Source of the DNA: a virus
Taxonomy: Duplodnaviria; Heunggongvirae; Uroviricota; Caudoviricetes
Direction: 5' to 3' (one strand)
IMG/VR virus record: IMGVR_UViG_2563366929_000004
DNA: 5,051 nucleotides
Part shown: positions 1 to 5,051 of the stretch, piece by piece
Position numbering within the stretch: position 1 is the stretch's first letter
How the letters are laid out: the number at the start of each line of letters is the position of its first letter
The notes under the pieces: model-generated
Told to the model about the DNA's origin: nothing
Databases searched by the model: none
The model's input: only the letters and a program-made list of their open reading frames with translations
Position numbers and translations under genes: made by a program

Positions 1-36
1 AGATAAAACACTCTCCAGGAAACCCGGGGCGGTTCA
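1..36 (+). mobile_element. Right terminal inverted repeat of an IS3-family insertion sequence (IS629-like); the element body lies left of the window
   Basis: The reverse complement of 12..36 (TGAACCGCCCCGGGTTTCCTGGAGA) matches 23 of 25 positions of 4846..4870 (TGAACCGCCCCGGGAATCCTGGAGA), which sits just upstream of an IS3-family orfA. Assignment to IS629 rests on recalled termini, not a search. Confidence 0.7.
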
Positions 37-803
37 ATACGGGAGAACTCATAACCGCAGTCATGACATCTGCCGGAATAGTTCGATTGAATTTGTTTTA
101 GCGCCGGATACAGTTCGCGGAATAATGCCTGTGAGCGGTTGGCATAATCCCATAGCCATACAAGGCTGTTTGCTTCTTTTGCAGAAAGCTCGTTGGTTTT
201 CTTCTCTTGTTTGCCGATGAACTCACCTTCAAGCACTACCCTGTGGATGTACTCTACTGCTTGTGGTATCTGAGATGCATCAAGCTCTTCAATACTTTCC
301 ACATTGAAACGCTGATGAATCATTGCATAAGCTTCTGGGTACATTAGATGCTTTTTGCTGACTAGCATATTTACAGCATCACGAAGCGGAGTCCTGTCAT
401 CAACAGATGTTTTCTTCCGTGCATTTGCTGCCTCTCCCTTTGTCCAGTAGTCATGCAGCACAGTAAAGCATTCTTCCTGGTACTGAATCAGTTTATCGCG
501 GATGTCAGCACGAACTTTCTCAGGGTTGATGCTGAACAGCCATCCATTTAACTTCTTCAAAGGAAGGCAGAGTAGCTTACGAAGCTTACCATCAGCGGCA
601 ACCATGTTCATATGAACACAGTTGAATTTGCTAATCTGCTTCATGAGTTTTGTTTGCTGCGTTGACCAGCTCATTCCGAGGTTTTCAACGATTGGCTTCA
701 TCGCAACATATGCAACTCCGGCAGCCATGGCGGTGATAATTTGCTGACCGTTGAATGGCACGTAAGAGGTGTTCACTGCTTCTAAAATTGCTATACTATT
801 CAT
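37..803 (-). CDS. ant: Phage antirepressor, P22 Ant-like; 3' end interrupted by the IS at 36/37, and the frame reads on into the IS
   Basis: ATG at 803..801 with GGAG about 9 nt upstream. The open frame runs to the window edge (translation starts [46 protein letters not shown]). It is not in the ORF track because no stop lies in the window. N-terminus recalled as Ant-like; position downstream of arc and divergent from mnt supports this. Confidence 0.75.
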
Positions 804-884
804 GTTGGTTTTTCTCCACGGATTTACCGACAACCGAAGCCCTGACTGTTCCAGCAGTTGGGGCTTCACTGTTTTGATTTCTTT
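804..884 (+). ncRNA. Candidate sar-like antisense RNA covering the ant ribosome-binding site and start codon
   Basis: Extended -10 (TGcTATACT, 789..797) on the + strand just inside the ant 5' end. An imperfect hairpin (836..867, GAAGCCC/GGGCTTC core plus wobble-extended stem) followed by the T-rich ACTGTTTTGATTTCTTT lies about 30-80 nt downstream. P22 makes an antisense sar RNA at the equivalent position. The 804..1035 arc-ant spacer has no ORF longer than about 10 codons on the minus strand. Confidence 0.35.
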
Positions 885-1035
885 GCCGCATCAAGCATCA
901 CTTCTGAAAACGTGCGCTTGCCACTGAATACTCTTTCTCTTCTCAATTTTTCGTTCGTGCCAAATGATTCGCCATGAACAAAATTTGGTCTTAAAATGGT
1001 AATCGCAATCTCTTTGACTACTGCATCCAAGCGAA

Positions 1036-1188
1036 TCACACCGTTACCCCCTCTCTCTTCAGGCTGTCTATCAGGCGCTTGATAACCTCTGAGTTAAACG
1101 ACCTGCACTCTTCCTTTGCCCTGCTACCGATAGCATCCTTTAACGACTGCGGCATCCTTACCAAAATCTTACTTATTTCTTTCTCCAT
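1036..1188 (-). CDS. arc: Arc-like ribbon-helix-helix transcriptional repressor (50 aa)
   Basis: ATG at 1188 is preceded by GGAGGG 5 nt upstream. The translation MEKEISKILVRMPQSLKDAIGSRAKEECRSFNSEVIKRLIDSLKREGVTV resembles P22 Arc (the RSxNSE motif and KxEG C-terminus). The ORF-track start at 1224 is a TTG extension with no RBS. Confidence 0.8.
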   Translation of the reverse strand: MEKEISKILVRMPQSLKDAIGSRAKEECRSFNSEVIKRLIDSLKREGVTV

Positions 1189-1224
1189 GTTACCCTCCAC
1201 GCAAACAACTCTTTTCGAATACAA

Positions 1225-1290
1225 AAGATAGCAAAGTGAGTATATCTAGTCAAAATTTTTTTGCATACACTTTGCTATCAAATTGAATAC
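1225..1290. promoter_or_regulatory. Divergent arc/ant and mnt promoter-operator region with a perfect 12-bp inverted repeat
   Basis: GATAGCAAAGTG (1227..1238) and its exact reverse complement CACTTTGCTATC (1268..1279) are separated by 29 bp. On the minus strand, -35 TTGACT (1253..1248), a 17-bp spacer and -10 TATCTT (1230..1225) overlap one arm. On the + strand, TTGCAT (1261..1266) and TATCAA (1276..1281) are weaker candidates around the other arm. Confidence 0.5.
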
Positions 1291-1302
1291 CAAAGGTGTT
1301 AT

Positions 1303-1551
1303 ATGGCAAAGGGTGTGTCAATTTCTCCAACTACGGTAAGAATCCCTGAATCTTTACGCGAGGCTCTTGCTGTCAGAGCATCAAAAAATGGTCGCTCTGT
1401 TAACTCCGAGATCGTCATGATTTTGCAAGCCGCGATTGATGAAGATAGGTCGCCAAAGTCAGTTGAGTCATTTGCTCAGCAAGAAGCTGATAAATTCAAA
1501 GAGGCGCTACTTGAGACGCTAAAGACCATGTATGCTAAGGATGAAAAATAA
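1303..1551 (+). CDS. mnt: Mnt-like ribbon-helix-helix repressor (82 aa)
   Basis: ATG at 1303 with AAGGTG 5 nt upstream. MAKGVSISPTTVRIPESLREALAVRASKNGRSVNSEIVMILQAAI... aligns by eye with P22 Mnt, including a similar C-terminal helix (...LLETLKTMYAK). It is divergent from arc. The ORF-track start at 1261 is a TTG extension. Confidence 0.8.
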   Translation: MAKGVSISPTTVRIPESLREALAVRASKNGRSVNSEIVMILQAAIDEDRSPKSVESFAQQEADKFKEALLETLKTMYAKDEK

Positions 1552-2087
1552 TGCTGCACACAATTCATTTCTTATGCCCTGTTAACACTGCCACTGTTGG
1601 GCAACTTCAGAACCACTGTCTCACCGCATTATCTCAAGGCGCAACTGAATTAAATATCCATATATCAAGTCAGGGAGGGGAAACTGCTGCTGGCTTTACT
1701 GCGTATAACTTTCTTAAGTCACTCCCTGTTACCGTTAGAACTCACAACATAAGCAATGTTGAATCCATAGCTAATATCGTTTTCCTGGCTGGCTCAGAAC
1801 GTTTCGCAAACCCATTATCAAGATTCCTGTTACATCCTCTATTATGGTGCTTTGCCTCCCCAGCCGCCGACCATGCCAGATTGAGAGAGTACGGGAAATG
1901 CCTCGATAACGATCTTGATCGCTTCGTTGAGACGTTCAATATCGACATCGGAACCCATATTAGGTGGGCATCCCTGATAGCAGACTCGACCATTTTGGAT
2001 GCTAACAAGGCTCTTGAGCATGGCATAATTAATTCCATAAAAACTGCAAGGCTGGCATCCAATCAGGCAAACTGGTGGGTTGTTTGA
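1551..2087 (+). CDS. ClpP-fold (S14-like) serine peptidase homologue, 178 aa
   Basis: The ATG overlaps the mnt stop (TAATG), with AAGGA about 9 nt upstream. By eye, ...LNIHISSQGGETAAGFTAYNFLKSLPVTVRTHNISNVESIANIVFLAGSERFANPLSRFLLHP... aligns with the E. coli ClpP core (YINSPGG...GQAASMGAFLLTAG...RVMIHQP). The candidate catalytic Ser (ESIAN) and His (LLHP) are conserved; an Asp lies near the expected position. Confidence 0.7.
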   Translation: MLHTIHFLCPVNTATVGQLQNHCLTALSQGATELNIHISSQGGETAAGFTAYNFLKSLPVTVRTHNISNVESIANIVFLAGSERFANPLSRFLLHPLLWCFASPAADHARLREYGKCLDNDLDRFVETFNIDIGTHIRWASLIADSTILDANKALEHGIINSIKTARLASNQANWWVV

Positions 2088-2110
2088 TGGGTAAATCATG
2101 ATTACTCCTT

Positions 2111-2138
2111 ATAAAAAACCCACCTGACGGTGGGTTTA
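2111..2138. terminator. Bidirectional Rho-independent terminator between convergent genes
   Basis: The stem AACCCACC (2117..2124) / GGTGGGTT (2129..2136) with loop TGAC is flanked by an A-tract (2111..2118) on one side and a short T run on the other. It sits between the ClpP-like stop (2087) and the YafO-like stop (2136). Confidence 0.6.
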
Positions 2139-2585
2139 GTCAAACATAGTGTTTCTAAAGTCTCTCGCATACCCTGCTAACACTCTCATTCTATTATGAT
2201 TGTTAGCAGACATGTGAGCTACAGGATGAAAAAGAGCAATCAATGAATACCTGTTCTCATCAAAAAGATTTTGTGCATAAACGAGAGCGGTATTGGATGT
2301 TTTATGCCACTGCAACTTTTGCGGTGTGCTGATATCTGTGCCATTTTTTATTGGCTCAAATTTATTTTCACCAATTGCTAAATGAAGGTGCATAAGGCCT
2401 GCATCTTCAATATCAGGAGGTCGATGATAAGAGGTGTCTCTGCCAAAATAGCTGGGCAACGTTCCCGTAGACTTGTAGATGATAAAATCATCTACAAGTG
2501 TTTGTTTTAAATCAGGAAACTCAACAAAAACCGGGGAGAAAAAATAGTCAAAACTATCCTGATTATATTCCACGGTTACTTGCAT
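2136..2585 (-). CDS. YafO-family toxin homologue (ribosome-dependent mRNA interferase family), 149 aa
   Basis: ATG at 2585 with GAGGT 6 nt upstream. Blocks ...DDFIIYKSTGTLPSYFGRD..., ...LMHLHLAIGENKFEP... and ...ALVYAQNLFDENRYSLIALFHPVAHMSANNHNRM... match recalled E. coli YafO segments (FISYKRDGVLPDIFGRD, HIHLANENNPFPP, LVYCQGAFDEQAWLLIAILKPEPHKLARDNNQM). Not verified by search. Confidence 0.7.
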   Translation of the reverse strand: MQVTVEYNQDSFDYFFSPVFVEFPDLKQTLVDDFIIYKSTGTLPSYFGRDTSYHRPPDIEDAGLMHLHLAIGENKFEPIKNGTDISTPQKLQWHKTSNTALVYAQNLFDENRYSLIALFHPVAHMSANNHNRMRVLAGYARDFRNTMFD

Positions 2586-2593
2586 GTTTTACC

Positions 2594-3160
2594 TCAGTGG
2601 AAGTTACCAGAGTGAAACACACGAGTCCCGTGCTCAGCAAGCGCACGCAAACCAGCCATATCTACGGAACTATCAAAAACAACCGGAACACATGAGCGTT
2701 GTTTAATAAGACTATTCAGGTTGGTTACGGCAGATCTGGCATCAGCAACAACGATATAGATATCTCTTGCGATCTCTTTAAAATCAGCAGAAGCTTCTTT
2801 GAATACCGATTTCATTGCCCCTTCAAGTCCTCTCAATTGATGCTCTATCAATCGAGACTTTTCTGGTTCAATGATAGACAACACATTGTCTACATTCTCA
2901 TCGGTAGCGTTTGCAAGAACACGATAAGCGTATTTCAGCATTCGAGACAATTCTTTAATCGAAGACACCGCCTCATGAAGCTCATCATTAGCCCGTTCAC
3001 TGCTGAATGAGGATTGATGGTAAGCGTGCTGAACGTTATCAGTAACAACCACCTCACAACTGAACGCAGAAGCTTGCTGTAATAGCAAACCTATTGCGAC
3101 TCCAGCTTTGGCAGCGTTCAAGCTAAACATTTCATCAATCCCATTAGTCTCATTGCTCAT
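2594..3160 (-). CDS. Hypothetical acidic 188-aa protein, upstream partner of the YafO-like toxin; family unknown
   Basis: ATG at 3160 with AAGGAGG 5 nt upstream. The ORF-track start at 3190 is a TTG extension. Its TGA stop (2596..2594) lies inside the toxin RBS (TGAGGT), leaving an 8-nt gap. No YefM/Phd, RHH or HTH signature is recognisable by eye. Confidence 0.65.
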   Translation of the reverse strand: MSNETNGIDEMFSLNAAKAGVAIGLLLQQASAFSCEVVVTDNVQHAYHQSSFSSERANDELHEAVSSIKELSRMLKYAYRVLANATDENVDNVLSIIEPEKSRLIEHQLRGLEGAMKSVFKEASADFKEIARDIYIVVADARSAVTNLNSLIKQRSCVPVVFDSSVDMAGLRALAEHGTRVFHSGNFH

Positions 3161-3227
3161 ACAAACCTCCTTCTTATCGGAGATTATCAATAGCTATGCA
3201 TCCATTGAATACACGCTATGCGCAATA

Positions 3228-3256
3228 AGTTTACGTCACGTGATATCATTATGCAA
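3228..3256 (-). promoter_or_regulatory. Putative promoter of the 188-aa/YafO-like operon with palindromes in the spacer
   Basis: On the minus strand, -35 TTGCAT (3256..3251), a 17-bp spacer and -10 TAAACT (3233..3228). The spacer holds overlapping palindromes TCACGTGA (3236..3243) and TGATATCA (3241..3248). A direct repeat GCTATGC (3193..3199 and 3215..3221) lies downstream. Confidence 0.4.
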
Positions 3257-3335
3257 CCACCGTTCTATCACCGACTAACTTTACTCCCACTCCTATACAT
3301 CATCTGGTATCCTGCGCAAAACTAAGGAGGTTGGT

Positions 3336-3686
3336 GTGAATGCTCAGTCTGTCATCATGGTTTTCCTTGGGCTGATTGTCGCAAAACTATATCCAGACTG
3401 GTGGAAAGGGGCATTAGCTACTGTCGCCATCTATTTGCTTTTATCCATCGTTAAGCGATCACTCGCTGAGACCGTAAATCAAGCAAAACGTTTCTCATTT
3501 AAGAGTTTAATAAACTATGTTACTGGGCTTATTTTTTGCCTTTCAATTCTGATCGCTTCGGCTTTTTTGCCCGTATCAATAGCTAATTTTTTTGGCGCAC
3601 CATATGAGGTAGGTTATCTATTCTCTGTTTCCTGTCTTGCCATTGCTCTTCTTTACCTGTGGACGAGATCAAAGAATAAAAATTAG
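3336..3686 (+). CDS. Small integral membrane protein (116 aa, about 4 predicted TM helices), function unknown
   Basis: GTG start at 3336 with AAGGAGG (3324..3330) 5 nt upstream. Four hydrophobic stretches (SVIMVFLGLIVAKL, ALATVAIYLLLSIV, LINYVTGLIFCLSILIASAFL, VGYLFSVSCLAIALLYLW) and a basic C-terminus (RSKNKN). Divergent from the toxin operon. Confidence 0.65.
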   Translation: MNAQSVIMVFLGLIVAKLYPDWWKGALATVAIYLLLSIVKRSLAETVNQAKRFSFKSLINYVTGLIFCLSILIASAFLPVSIANFFGAPYEVGYLFSVSCLAIALLYLWTRSKNKN

Positions 3687-3703
3687 CCATCCGTGGCTGC
3701 CAG

Positions 3704-4845
3704 TTATTGAGCTTCTTTTTGTGATGCCTGTGCGACTCTGGTGAGCGATTGTGTGACCGTACTGATCGCTCTGTCATATGCTGTGCTACCTTTTGGCGTA
3801 TTTGCCAGACGTAACAAGGCATTTCGTATAACAGGGCTTTCGTATGCCTTCGCAGCTCCTCCTACGACACCAGCAGCAGGAACAACAAACGCAGCCGTTT
3901 TTAGCATCCCCGCTAATACTGCTGCGTTTATGATGCCACCACCAACTAACAATCCATAAAGCTGCTGACCATTTAAGTTTTGAACGTTCGCTTTTGCCGC
4001 GTGTCTTGTATCGTTGAGGTATTTAATAACGCCGTCCAGTTCCTTTCCATGTACGCCTTTAAAGAAAGTTGCTGATTGCTTCCTGTTCCGGTGTAACGCA
4101 TTAATAAACTTTTCAACACTAATATTTCCAGACGGATCAGTCGCCTTATCTACAGCATTCTGAACTATGGCTGCTCGTGCGTTTTGCCTACCATTGTCAT
4201 CCAGAAGCCTGTAAAGCTGAGAACGTTCTGATGGGTTTTGGCTAAAAACGAGTTTTGTTACATCCTCAGGTGTAGCCTTGCCGCTGGCTATTGCCTTTTG
4301 AACGCGCGTTCTTCCCATCATGTCATTGAATCTAGCCCATGAGCGATCAACCCTAGACATATTGGCAGCTTCTTCTGAGCCTAGTTTTTGGGATACTGCT
4401 TTTTTCATATCCGCTGTATATGCCTTGTAGACAATATCGCTGGCTTTCTGGAGCGTGTCTTTATCAACAGTCTCGTTTGAATTCATGAACCGCTTTCGAA
4501 GGTCAGTTCTGTTTTCTCTCGCCAGACGCAGGTCATTGGGTCCGCTGGTGATATCGTCTTTAAATTGCTGCAAGACTTTTACCGCGGCTCTATCCTGAGA
4601 TTTGCCCGGGCGGCTTAACACGGCAATCTGATTGTCGATAGCTTTTACCGTGTTTGAGAGATCGACAGGGGTATCCCCCATAGCGTCAATTATGCGGTTA
4701 TATCGCTTTCCTGCTGCCTCAATGAATTTTTGTTGCCCTTTAGTCGCAGATTCATAAAGCTGTTTATCAGAAATGCCACCCAGACCATCGCTAAATGTTC
4801 TGACTAAATTTTCTCGTGCTTGTTGTTGATTCAGCCGATTCTTAC
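3704..4845 (-). pseudogene. 5'-truncated gene for a large phage protein (possibly a gp16-like DNA-ejection protein), interrupted by the IS at 4845/4846
   Basis: The frame stays open from 3704 up through 4845 and into the IS inverted repeat; the first in-frame stop upstream (4871..4873) lies inside the IS. The first in-frame ATG is at 4681, the 325-aa ORF in the track. The C-terminal part has a Gly/Ala-rich hydrophobic stretch (LYGLLVGGGIINAAVLAGMLKTAAFVVPAAGVVGGAAKAY). The product call rests only on position relative to the immI genes. Confidence 0.5.
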
Positions 4846-5051
4846 TGAACCGCCCCGGGAATCCTGGAGACTAAACTTCCTGAGAAAGAGGTAAACAGGA
4901 TGACTAAAAATACTCGTTTTTCCCCCGAAGTCCGTCAACGGGCAGTCCGTATGGTTCTGGAAAGTCAGAGCGAATATGACTCACAATGGGCGACAATTTG
5001 TTCCATTGCTCCAAAGATTGGCTGTACGCCGGAGACTCTGCGTGTCTGGGT
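4846..5051 (+). mobile_element. Left end of an IS3-family insertion sequence (IS629-like), running off the window
   Basis: Terminal repeat TGAACCGCCCCGGGAATCCTGGAGA at 4846..4870, followed 29 bp later by the orfA start. It is the inverted counterpart of 12..36. Confidence 0.8.
4900..5051 (+). CDS. IS3-family transposase OrfA (IS629-like), N-terminal part; partial
   Basis: ATG at 4900 with AGAGG about 10 nt upstream. Translation [50 protein letters not shown] matches the recalled IS629/IS1203-type OrfA N-terminus with its helix-turn-helix region. Confidence 0.85.

Follow-up and report, generated by a model that had tools for sequence, protein, structure and literature searches.

The window, as we call the whole 5,051-nt stretch of prophage DNA analysed here, begins with one end of an insertion sequence and closes with the opposite end of a second, and a phage immunity region lies between them. 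How did the two elements come to bracket this region, and what have they done to the prophage? The initial annotation had taken both edges for inverted-repeat ends of one IS629-like type in the same orientation, and had named two independent insertions and a recombinant structure as the possibilities to be told apart. Our analysis indicates that the window is very probably the immunity-I/cargo block of a CUS-3-type, P22-like prophage at argW in E. coli K1, eroded by IS629 through two deletions. Two public E. coli assemblies, L006 (GCA_964048445.1) and L011 (GCA_000408305.1), contain the window in one piece at 100% identity. The full context comes from L006, the sole gap-free assembly behind it (no Ns); L011 has Ns within the right IS and an outer flank unlike that of L006.

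By homology over 36 and 206 nt, the window edges are assigned to IS629, with a chance match excluded. E. coli chromosomes contain full 1310-bp elements, annotated as 'IS3 family transposase, programmed frameshift', whose ends match both segments at 100% identity, and the terminal repeats at the two window ends agree at 23 of 25 positions (TGAACC...GGTTCA). The reverse complement of window positions 1–36 reads TGAACCGCCCCGGGTTTCCTGGAGAGTGTTTTATCT, and the window from 4846 on reads TGAACCGCCCCGGGAATCCTGGAGAC... The bulk of the left-edge copy lies to the left of the window; from the right-hand copy, the first 152 nt of orfA (ATG at 4900) are the only part of that gene inside the window. IS629 encodes overlapping orfA (HTH_Tnp_1, 108 aa) and orfB (rve, 295 aa) with a programmed −1 frameshift. 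The PGAP annotation of IS629 copies carries, along with the 'programmed frameshift' label, an AL1L pseudoknot. The full L006 copy (1310 bp) is 99.5% identical to the 'IS3 family IS629' features in LC567824.1 and LC567828.1. This genome holds three IS629 copies in all, every one identical, and the two that bracket the window, taken in window orientation, are one identical 1310-bp string. The element type and the shared left-to-right reading direction recognised from the edges alone are thereby confirmed.

Table 1. Features of the window, with coordinates, strand, and supporting evidence.
Feature	Coordinates	Strand	Evidence or remark
IS629, right terminal 36 bp (IRR end)	1..36	+	100% match to IRR end of full 1310-bp copies
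ant' antirepressor gene, cut after codon 255 of 300	37..803	-	Pfam P22_AR_N 3e-45, P22_AR_C 6e-22
sar antisense RNA of ant leader	804..870	+	Full-model match to Rfam RF00262, E 3e-17, 83.9 bits (gathering score 43)
Conserved phage ORF of 57 aa, located between arc and ant; annotated hypothetical	866..1039	-	PHROG 17642, 1.3e-43
arc-like ribbon-helix-helix repressor gene, 50 aa	1036..1188	-	Pfam Arc 5.1e-12; PGAP 'Arc family DNA-binding protein'
Perfect 12-nt inverted repeat, GATAGCAAAGTG / CACTTTGCTATC, 29 nt apart	1227..1279		Repeat search
mnt-position ribbon-helix-helix repressor gene, 82 aa	1303..1551	+	Pfam Arc 9.5e-11, FitA-like_RHH 2.1e-8
ClpP-fold serine protease-like cargo gene, 178 aa	1551..2087	+	Pfam CLP_protease 2.2e-11; PHROG 94
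YafO-family toxin-like cargo gene, 149 aa	2136..2585	-	Pfam YafO_toxin 3.4e-22
188-aa gene directly upstream of yafO-like gene	2594..3160	-	PHROG 8416, 2.2e-96; no Pfam match
Small hydrophobic protein gene	3357..3686	+	109 aa from PGAP start; 116 aa from GTG at 3336
gp16' ejection-protein gene	3704..4845	-	PHROG 770 'DNA transfer protein' 1.9e-114, profile positions 272-667
Second IS629, left terminal 206 bp (IRL + orfA start)	4846..5051	+	100% match to IRL ends of full copies

Both phage genes that abut the IS ends are truncated. Intact ant measures 903 nt (300 aa), of which the window retains 767 nt (803 down to 37), and the P22_AR_C match breaks off at profile position 56 of 73. The ant' frame continues through 13 IS-encoded codons to give a 268-aa product, with a stop 9 nt outside the window, which bears out the in-frame run into the IS described at first reading; PGAP labels the fragment 'incomplete, missing C-terminus'. 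At the opposite edge, gp16 (2013 nt and 670 aa when intact) has lost its first 871 nt, as its missing 5′ end had suggested, and keeps 1142 nt, that is, residues 292–670 plus 2 nt of codon 291 (PGAP: 'injection protein, missing N-terminus'). Comparison with intact homologues places the breakpoints at ant codon 255/256 and gp16 codon 291. In annotation terms, ant' and gp16' are pseudogenes, while the 268-aa product that fuses Ant to the IS is an artefact created by the junction.

The segment between the copies is undamaged. Window positions 36–4845 (4,810 bp) are 100.0% identical to S88, APEC O1, and more than 15 other complete genomes in which this stretch is free of IS, in agreement with the earlier view that the arc/mnt/cassette segment is intact. 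Sar contains a terminator-like hairpin at 836–867. The 12-nt inverted repeat falls in the divergent arc/mnt intergenic region and, by position only, is a candidate operator pair. The mnt-like gene overlaps the clpP-like gene, its stop codon sharing sequence with the start codon of the latter, and the 188-aa gene is a possible partner or antitoxin of its yafO-like neighbor. The small hydrophobic protein, in its 109- or 116-aa form, had no match in Pfam, PHROG, or PADLOC; in P22 its slot is occupied by sieA, a likeness of position only (PMC10461980). PADLOC, run on six cargo and small proteins, the ClpP-like protein included, gave no credible defence-system match; its single match, ZorA (E 0.004), was dismissed.

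What is new here is that neither bracketing IS629 copy has a target-site duplication. In L006, the left copy is flanked by GTC and ATA and the right copy by TAC and TCA. Simple IS629 insertions do bear 3-bp duplications in sister genomes (AAC and GCC in FY26, GGA in L006 itself, AAG in L009, and AAC in L010). Mapped on the intact S88 prophage, the breakpoints fall at 5002/7977 on the left and 12785/~33506 on the right. The left copy stands in place of 2,974 bp. Gone with them are the 3′ end of ant and all of the endosialidase tailspike gene but its last 208 nt, which the IS joins to the ant breakpoint. At the right copy, ~20.7 kb have been replaced. The loss takes in the 5′ end of gp16, every virion, lysis, Q, and nin gene, and the 3′ part of dnaB, and the IS now links gp16 codon 291 to what is left of dnaB, its first ~570 nt; ejection, tail, head, and packaging genes are among those lost. 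Since duplications are absent and the joined sequences lie 3 kb and ~20.7 kb apart in the intact prophage, these are deletion junctions rather than simple insertions, and the missing parts of ant and gp16 are gone, not merely interrupted. The absent 3-bp duplication is the mark of a deletion junction and no argument against IS629 identity. Extending the copies in both window-bearing assemblies thus decided for a recombinant structure. The prophage, previously called probably defective, is certainly so, and the damage goes far beyond what can be seen in the window, since the whole set of virion, lysis, and late-control genes is lost.

In the mechanism we propose, IS629 would have inserted by copy-out/paste-in, and IS-adjacent DNA would then have been removed, either by RecA recombination between two same-orientation copies or by a one-ended, transposase-associated adjacent deletion. 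Either route would leave a single IS without a target-site duplication, and we consider the two about equally likely for these scars; the order of events and the route behind each scar are not readable from the end product. What is left is a non-inducible remnant made up of int, neuO, tail', ant', sar, arc, mnt, the cargo, gp16', dnaB', replication gene O, immC, and early-left genes. The breakpoints in sister genomes make up a small natural showcase in which IS × IS deletion, inversion, and nested deletions beside an IS all occur. L009 carries two direct IS629 copies, and L003 and L002 show the same structure minus the intervening 3,079 bp. L012 and L015 have a common IRL junction at S88 5311 and differ on the IRR side (8510 versus 8274), as nested one-ended deletions do, and L014 misses 6 bp beside its IS and has no duplication. 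Inversion in the same prophage is also seen among these genomes. The nearest RefSeq genomes (FDAARGOS_1301 and three more) share the window's left junction and have the right IS inverted and 4 bp deeper in gp16.

The remaining pair of 1310-bp direct repeats is a substrate through which the intervening 4.8 kb could be deleted or amplified, as the initial annotation had proposed. We infer that this potential is realistic, since the copies are 1310 bp long and 100% identical and L009 and L003 show such a deletion elsewhere in the prophage. For this pair, the capacity to recombine is a predicted one; no deletion, circle, or amplification product of this pair was found in the genome search, where none of 5,426 complete genomes covered at least 80% of the expected tail'-IS-dnaB' query.

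A further proposal, compatible with erosion by two deletions, is that selection or self-stabilisation lets the block outlast one round of IS629 erosion after another. The cargo genes could exclude other phages, for example, or the YafO-like toxin pair could serve as an addiction module. In all IS-eroded variants examined (L001–L003, L005–L007, and L009–L015), with at least five different left and at least eight different right breakpoints, the deletions stop outside S88 9519–11850, the interval of the clpP-like, yafO-like, 188-aa, and 116-aa genes. However, the block itself was the query that led to most of the loci, a strong ascertainment bias, the gene functions are predictions from sequence with no PADLOC match, and retention may simply follow from hot spots for IS629 in the tailspike gene and gp16. 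We regard retention by selection or self-stabilisation as unlikely, and as quite unlikely the narrower idea that the cargo core (ClpP-like, YafO-like with its 188-aa partner, and small membrane protein) is a self-stabilising or phage-excluding module. If true, such a module would explain why many independent IS629 erosions stop short of the core. The IS629 direct repeats might also make the core a mobilisable or amplifiable unit.

Readings that compete directly with the two deletions fare far worse. Two independent simple insertions, in ant and gp16 of an otherwise complete prophage, are very improbable. This prophage does acquire simple insertions flanked by 3-bp duplications, one of which, in L010, lies only 5 bp from the window's gp16 junction in the same orientation, but both L006 copies are free of duplications, and on their outer sides lie the 3′ end of the tailspike gene and dnaB instead of the remainder of ant and gp16. 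There is likewise scant probability that an assembly artefact misjoined a unique segment to IS ends across a repeat. Related strains do carry 12–27 IS629 places per genome, and the L011 gaps lie inside the IS; yet both junctions are internal to the window, two independent assemblies (one a gap-free chromosome) show each of them in identical form, and at least four RefSeq complete genomes (H3–H6) share the left one. Among the 5,426 RefSeq complete E. coli genomes, the whole window as one piece was absent and none carried its right junction. Finally, that an IS629-cassette-IS629 composite transposon brought the immunity/cargo block to its present site is hardly credible: two direct copies do surround a 4.8-kb payload, and IS3411, related to IS629, flanks Tn3411 as direct repeats, but the block sits in its native position and orientation between neuO/int and the immC/replication genes, as in IS-free S88, the outer flanks GTC and TCA differ and form no duplication, the block's 406 places are all chromosomal in prophage context, with none on plasmids, and no IS-bounded copy with a 3-bp duplication was seen at an unrelated locus.

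The eroded prophage resembles CUS-3 in its argW/intS site, neuO, endosialidase tailspike, P22-type immI (ant, sar, arc, and the mnt position), and ejection genes (PMC13001214, PMC10461980). The tRNA-Arg gene and intS adjoin the remnant in L001, L002, L006, and S88. In seven loci, a neuO-type acyltransferase gene with an AAGACTC array of 10 to 57 copies lies beside the tail remnant; this heptanucleotide is the repeat defined for the neuO O-acetyltransferase gene (PMC13001214). The endosialidase tailspike and P22-type virion genes are present in the intact relatives S88 and L008, whereas the window's own genome has the tailspike reduced to 208 nt and the virion genes deleted. As points of difference, this prophage has lost ~23.7 kb and carries three IS629 copies. 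'CUS-3' names the type here, as no record in the phage collection covers at least 80% of the block for comparison (phiv205-1 covers 44%). Genome counts taken as a gauge of how well the block is retained, for neuO (157), the block (51), and the coat-portal region (400), are confounded by mosaicism among P22-like prophages and support no conclusion.

The likeness to P22 immunity I extends to the order gene 16, sieA position, mnt, arc, ant, and tailspike, to sar as recognised by Rfam, and to ant, which is ~84% identical to P22 ant at the DNA level. Unlike P22, the locus has extra cargo between the mnt-like gene and gp16 (ClpP-like, YafO-like, 188-aa ORF, and 116-aa ORF), truncated ant and gene 16, and a gene 9 that is down to 208 nt, outside the window. 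The insertion sequence is the same element as IS629 of E. coli O157:H7 (99.5% identity, 1310 bp, orfA/orfB frameshift, and 3-bp duplications at simple insertions). In O157:H7 prophages it causes gene inactivation, IS-adjacent deletions, and inter-copy recombination, as here (PMC9943667). The setting differs in host, an extraintestinal K1 E. coli in place of EHEC, and in target, a prophage that is P22-like and not of the lambdoid Stx type.

IS629-flanked deletion scars are an ordinary, well-known route of prophage decay, and the significance of this case is small beyond bookkeeping; our literature search found no published account of IS629 decay of CUS-3. The prophage that modifies the K1 capsule survives in this lineage as a dead remnant, in which neuO, int, the two immunity regions, and some cargo genes are retained. 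IS629 is known chiefly from EHEC, and here it actively reshapes a prophage of extraintestinal K1 E. coli.

The window edges (1–36 and 4846–5051) carry opposite ends of the same insertion sequence: 1–36, reverse-complemented, reads TGAACCGCCCCGGGTTTCCTGGAGAG..., and the sequence from 4846 reads TGAACCGCCCCGGGAATCCTGGAGAC..., followed by an ATG at 4900. As the initial annotation had it, 23 of their first 25 positions match. Both are 100% identical to the termini of full elements in E. coli chromosomes, annotated as 'IS3 family transposase, programmed frameshift'. The full element spans 1310 bp and is 99.5% identical to 'IS3 family IS629' features in Stx-phage records; judged by sequence, it is IS629. 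Since an IRR end lies at the left edge and an IRL end at the right, the two copies share a left-to-right reading direction, the orientation originally proposed. A 100% identical copy also lies in a phage record ('int' region, Escherichia phage 21; H61).

The prophage belongs to the CUS-3 type of P22-like K1 prophages. Its locus contains argW (tRNA-Arg), intS, and an acyltransferase gene with a GAGTCTT/AAGACTC heptamer array, followed by the endosialidase tailspike, ant, arc, the mnt-position repressor, cargo genes, and P22-type ejection genes, and further on by P22-like late, nin, replication, immC, and early-left genes, ending at dsdC. The AAGACTC array is the neuO phase-variation repeat (PMC13001214) and ranges from 10 to 57 copies between genomes. 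Copy numbers that are not a multiple of 3 give phase-OFF (PMC13001214); with 10 copies, neuO of L006 (assembly GCA_964048445.1) would be phase-OFF. Pfam matches within the window are P22_AR_N/C, Arc (twice), CLP_protease, and YafO_toxin. The control region between the divergent arc and mnt genes contains a perfect 12-nt inverted repeat (GATAGCAAAGTG/CACTTTGCTATC), whose two arms are candidate operator half-sites. Strain S88 (L016) carries an IS-free copy of this prophage (~40.4 kb) that is 100% identical to window 36–4845. The arc/mnt/cassette segment is intact, as originally proposed.

Features of the window and of the compared E. coli loci (window position x corresponds to S88 position x + 7940)
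Feature	Sequence	Position	Strand	Detail
sar antisense RNA	window	804–870	+	Rfam RF00262, 83.9 bits, complete; directly upstream of truncated ant
sar terminator hairpin	window	836–867
arc/mnt inverted repeat	window	1227–1238, 1268–1279
mnt-position and ClpP-like genes	window	1303–2087	+
188-aa and YafO-family genes	window	2136–3160	−
Left-side breakpoints	S88	7750, 7977, 8274, 8510, 9519
Right-side breakpoints	S88	11850, 12288/12295, 12660, 12694, 12785, 12789, 12790, 12806
Clustered gp16 junctions	S88	12785, 12788–90, 12789, 12806–08		window equivalents 4845–4868
neuO array	L006	4588–4657		reverse-complemented
neuO array	L016	4399
neuO array	L001	3652
neuO array	L002	5559
neuO array	L013	7565
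neuO array	L014	7565
neuO array	L015	9565
Simple insertion, tailspike gene	FY26			duplication AAC
Simple insertion, clpP-like gene	FY26			duplication GCC
Simple insertion, early-left region	L006			duplication GGA
Simple insertion, replication gene	L009			duplication AAG
Simple insertion, gp16	L010			duplication AAC
Inverted gp16-side IS629	L002	12125–13434		window junction at 4846
Inversion between IS629 copies	L007	8504–16333
Alternative cargo	L004	11503–13045
IS629 copy	AF017626.1	731–2040

None of the 5,426 RefSeq complete E. coli genomes searched holds the window in one piece. Assemblies were retrieved through the 325-aa ORF of the truncated gp16 gene, and two contain all 5051 bases contiguously at 100% identity: L006, on the gap-free chromosome OZ040079.1, and L011 (GCA_000408305.1), on a scaffold with Ns inside the right IS. 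An assembly artefact at the IS junctions is unlikely, as both junctions lie inside the window itself and are present in two assemblies; at least four RefSeq complete genomes also have the left one.

The initial annotation had proposed inspecting the full IS copies for 3-bp target-site duplications and locating the breakpoints on uninterrupted homologues. Both bracketing copies in L006 are full length, the same 1310-bp string in window orientation, and the early-left region has a third, also identical. The flanks of the bracketing pair are GTC-IS-ATA (left) and TAC-IS-TCA (right), with no duplication at either, whereas simple insertions of the same IS in sister genomes show clean 3-bp duplications. 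Two simple IS629 insertions are thus contradicted by the L006 flanks. On S88 coordinates, the left copy joins 5002 to 7977, with 2,974 bp gone (136 nt of ant, a 100-nt spacer, and 2,738 nt of the 2,946-nt tailspike gene), and the right copy joins 12785 to ~33506, with ~20.7 kb gone (the first 871 nt of gp16, the gp20 and gp7 homologues, tail and head genes, portal, terminase, lysis genes, Q, the nin region, and the 3' part of dnaB). Because the prophage flanks on the argW and early-left sides keep their normal order, loss rather than relocation is the simplest reading. Arrival of the IS-bounded block as a composite transposon is contradicted by native synteny on both sides, and by the unlike outer flanks of the two copies; the block was found only on chromosomes, in this prophage context.

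The prophage is therefore defective, as first suspected, and far more so than the window alone could show; both predicted truncations also hold. The left copy leaves 767 of the 903 nt of ant (803 down to 37), whose frame runs 13 residues into the IS to a stop 9 nt beyond the window, a 268-aa fusion gene called in L003, L006, L009, and L011. The right copy leaves 1142 of the 2013 nt of gp16, encoding residues 292–670 of 670.

A single IS without duplication would result either from recombination between two same-orientation IS629 copies or from a one-ended deletion beside an IS. Sister genomes directly support both. For recombination, L009 has two direct copies, one of them in the replication gene, and L003 and FDAARGOS_1301 match it except that the 3,079 bp separating the copies are missing. 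For one-ended deletion, L012 and L015 share an IRL-side junction (S88 5311) with IRR-side ends at 8510 versus 8274, and in L014 an IS in gp16 lacks a duplication and 6 bp next to it are lost. Either route may have produced either window scar, and we assign neither. In L007 the whole immunity/cargo block is turned around with respect to the surrounding prophage, by an inversion between oppositely oriented copies of which one lies in the tailspike gene and the other in gp16.

IS-driven prophage erosion is textbook knowledge, best described for IS629 in O157:H7. Public genomes already annotate the structure as pseudogenes and IS3-family transposases, and it is known as a kind; no publication dealing specifically with IS629 decay of CUS-3 turned up in our literature search. 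The expected deletion product of the present pair, neuO-tail'-IS-dnaB', occurred in none of the 5,426 complete genomes searched. Given two identical 1310-bp copies in direct orientation, RecA-dependent 6.1-kb deletion, circle excision, or amplification are all plausible, and recombination between them is a reasonable prediction.

A 24-bp stretch of gp16 holds at least four different IS629 junctions, which come from different genomes and occur in both orientations; they adjoin CGGTTC, a copy of the final bases of the IS end (CGGTTCA); the cluster may be an insertion hot spot mimicking the IS terminus. Four RefSeq complete genomes have exactly the left junction of the window and carry an inverted gp16-side IS629, which sits 4 bp deeper in gp16 and adjoins the replication gene. 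Similar shifts of a few bp separate L001 from L014 at the clpP-like gene, where the orientations are opposite, and L013 from L006 in the tailspike gene, where the orientation is the same (4998 versus 5002). These offsets may reflect re-insertion beside a resident IS end.

Within the cargo, the mnt-position ribbon-helix-helix gene and a 178-aa ClpP-fold protease-like gene overlap by one base (TAATG), making a prophage-expressed repressor-protease operon likely; phage annotators name the ClpP-like homologue 'head maturation protease', which does not fit its location. A YafO-family toxin gene (Pfam 3.4e-22) follows the 188-aa gene (no known domain; PHROG 8416) after 8 nt. The two may form a toxin-antitoxin pair, unusual in that YafN-type antitoxins are much smaller than this upstream partner. 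PADLOC gave no defence-system match for the cargo and small proteins. The interval between the sieA-position and mnt-like genes is a mosaic cargo slot; the CUS-3-type locus L004 carries a P63C-domain protein and two small ORFs there. The window's block occurs in only 51 complete genomes versus 157 for neuO. IS-side breakpoints differ among the eroded variants seen (L001–L003, L005–L007, L009–L015), all of which keep S88 9519–11850, comprising the ClpP-like, YafO-like, 188-aa, and 116-aa genes, a pattern biased because the block itself served as the query that found most loci. This retention could reflect selection or toxin-antitoxin stabilisation.
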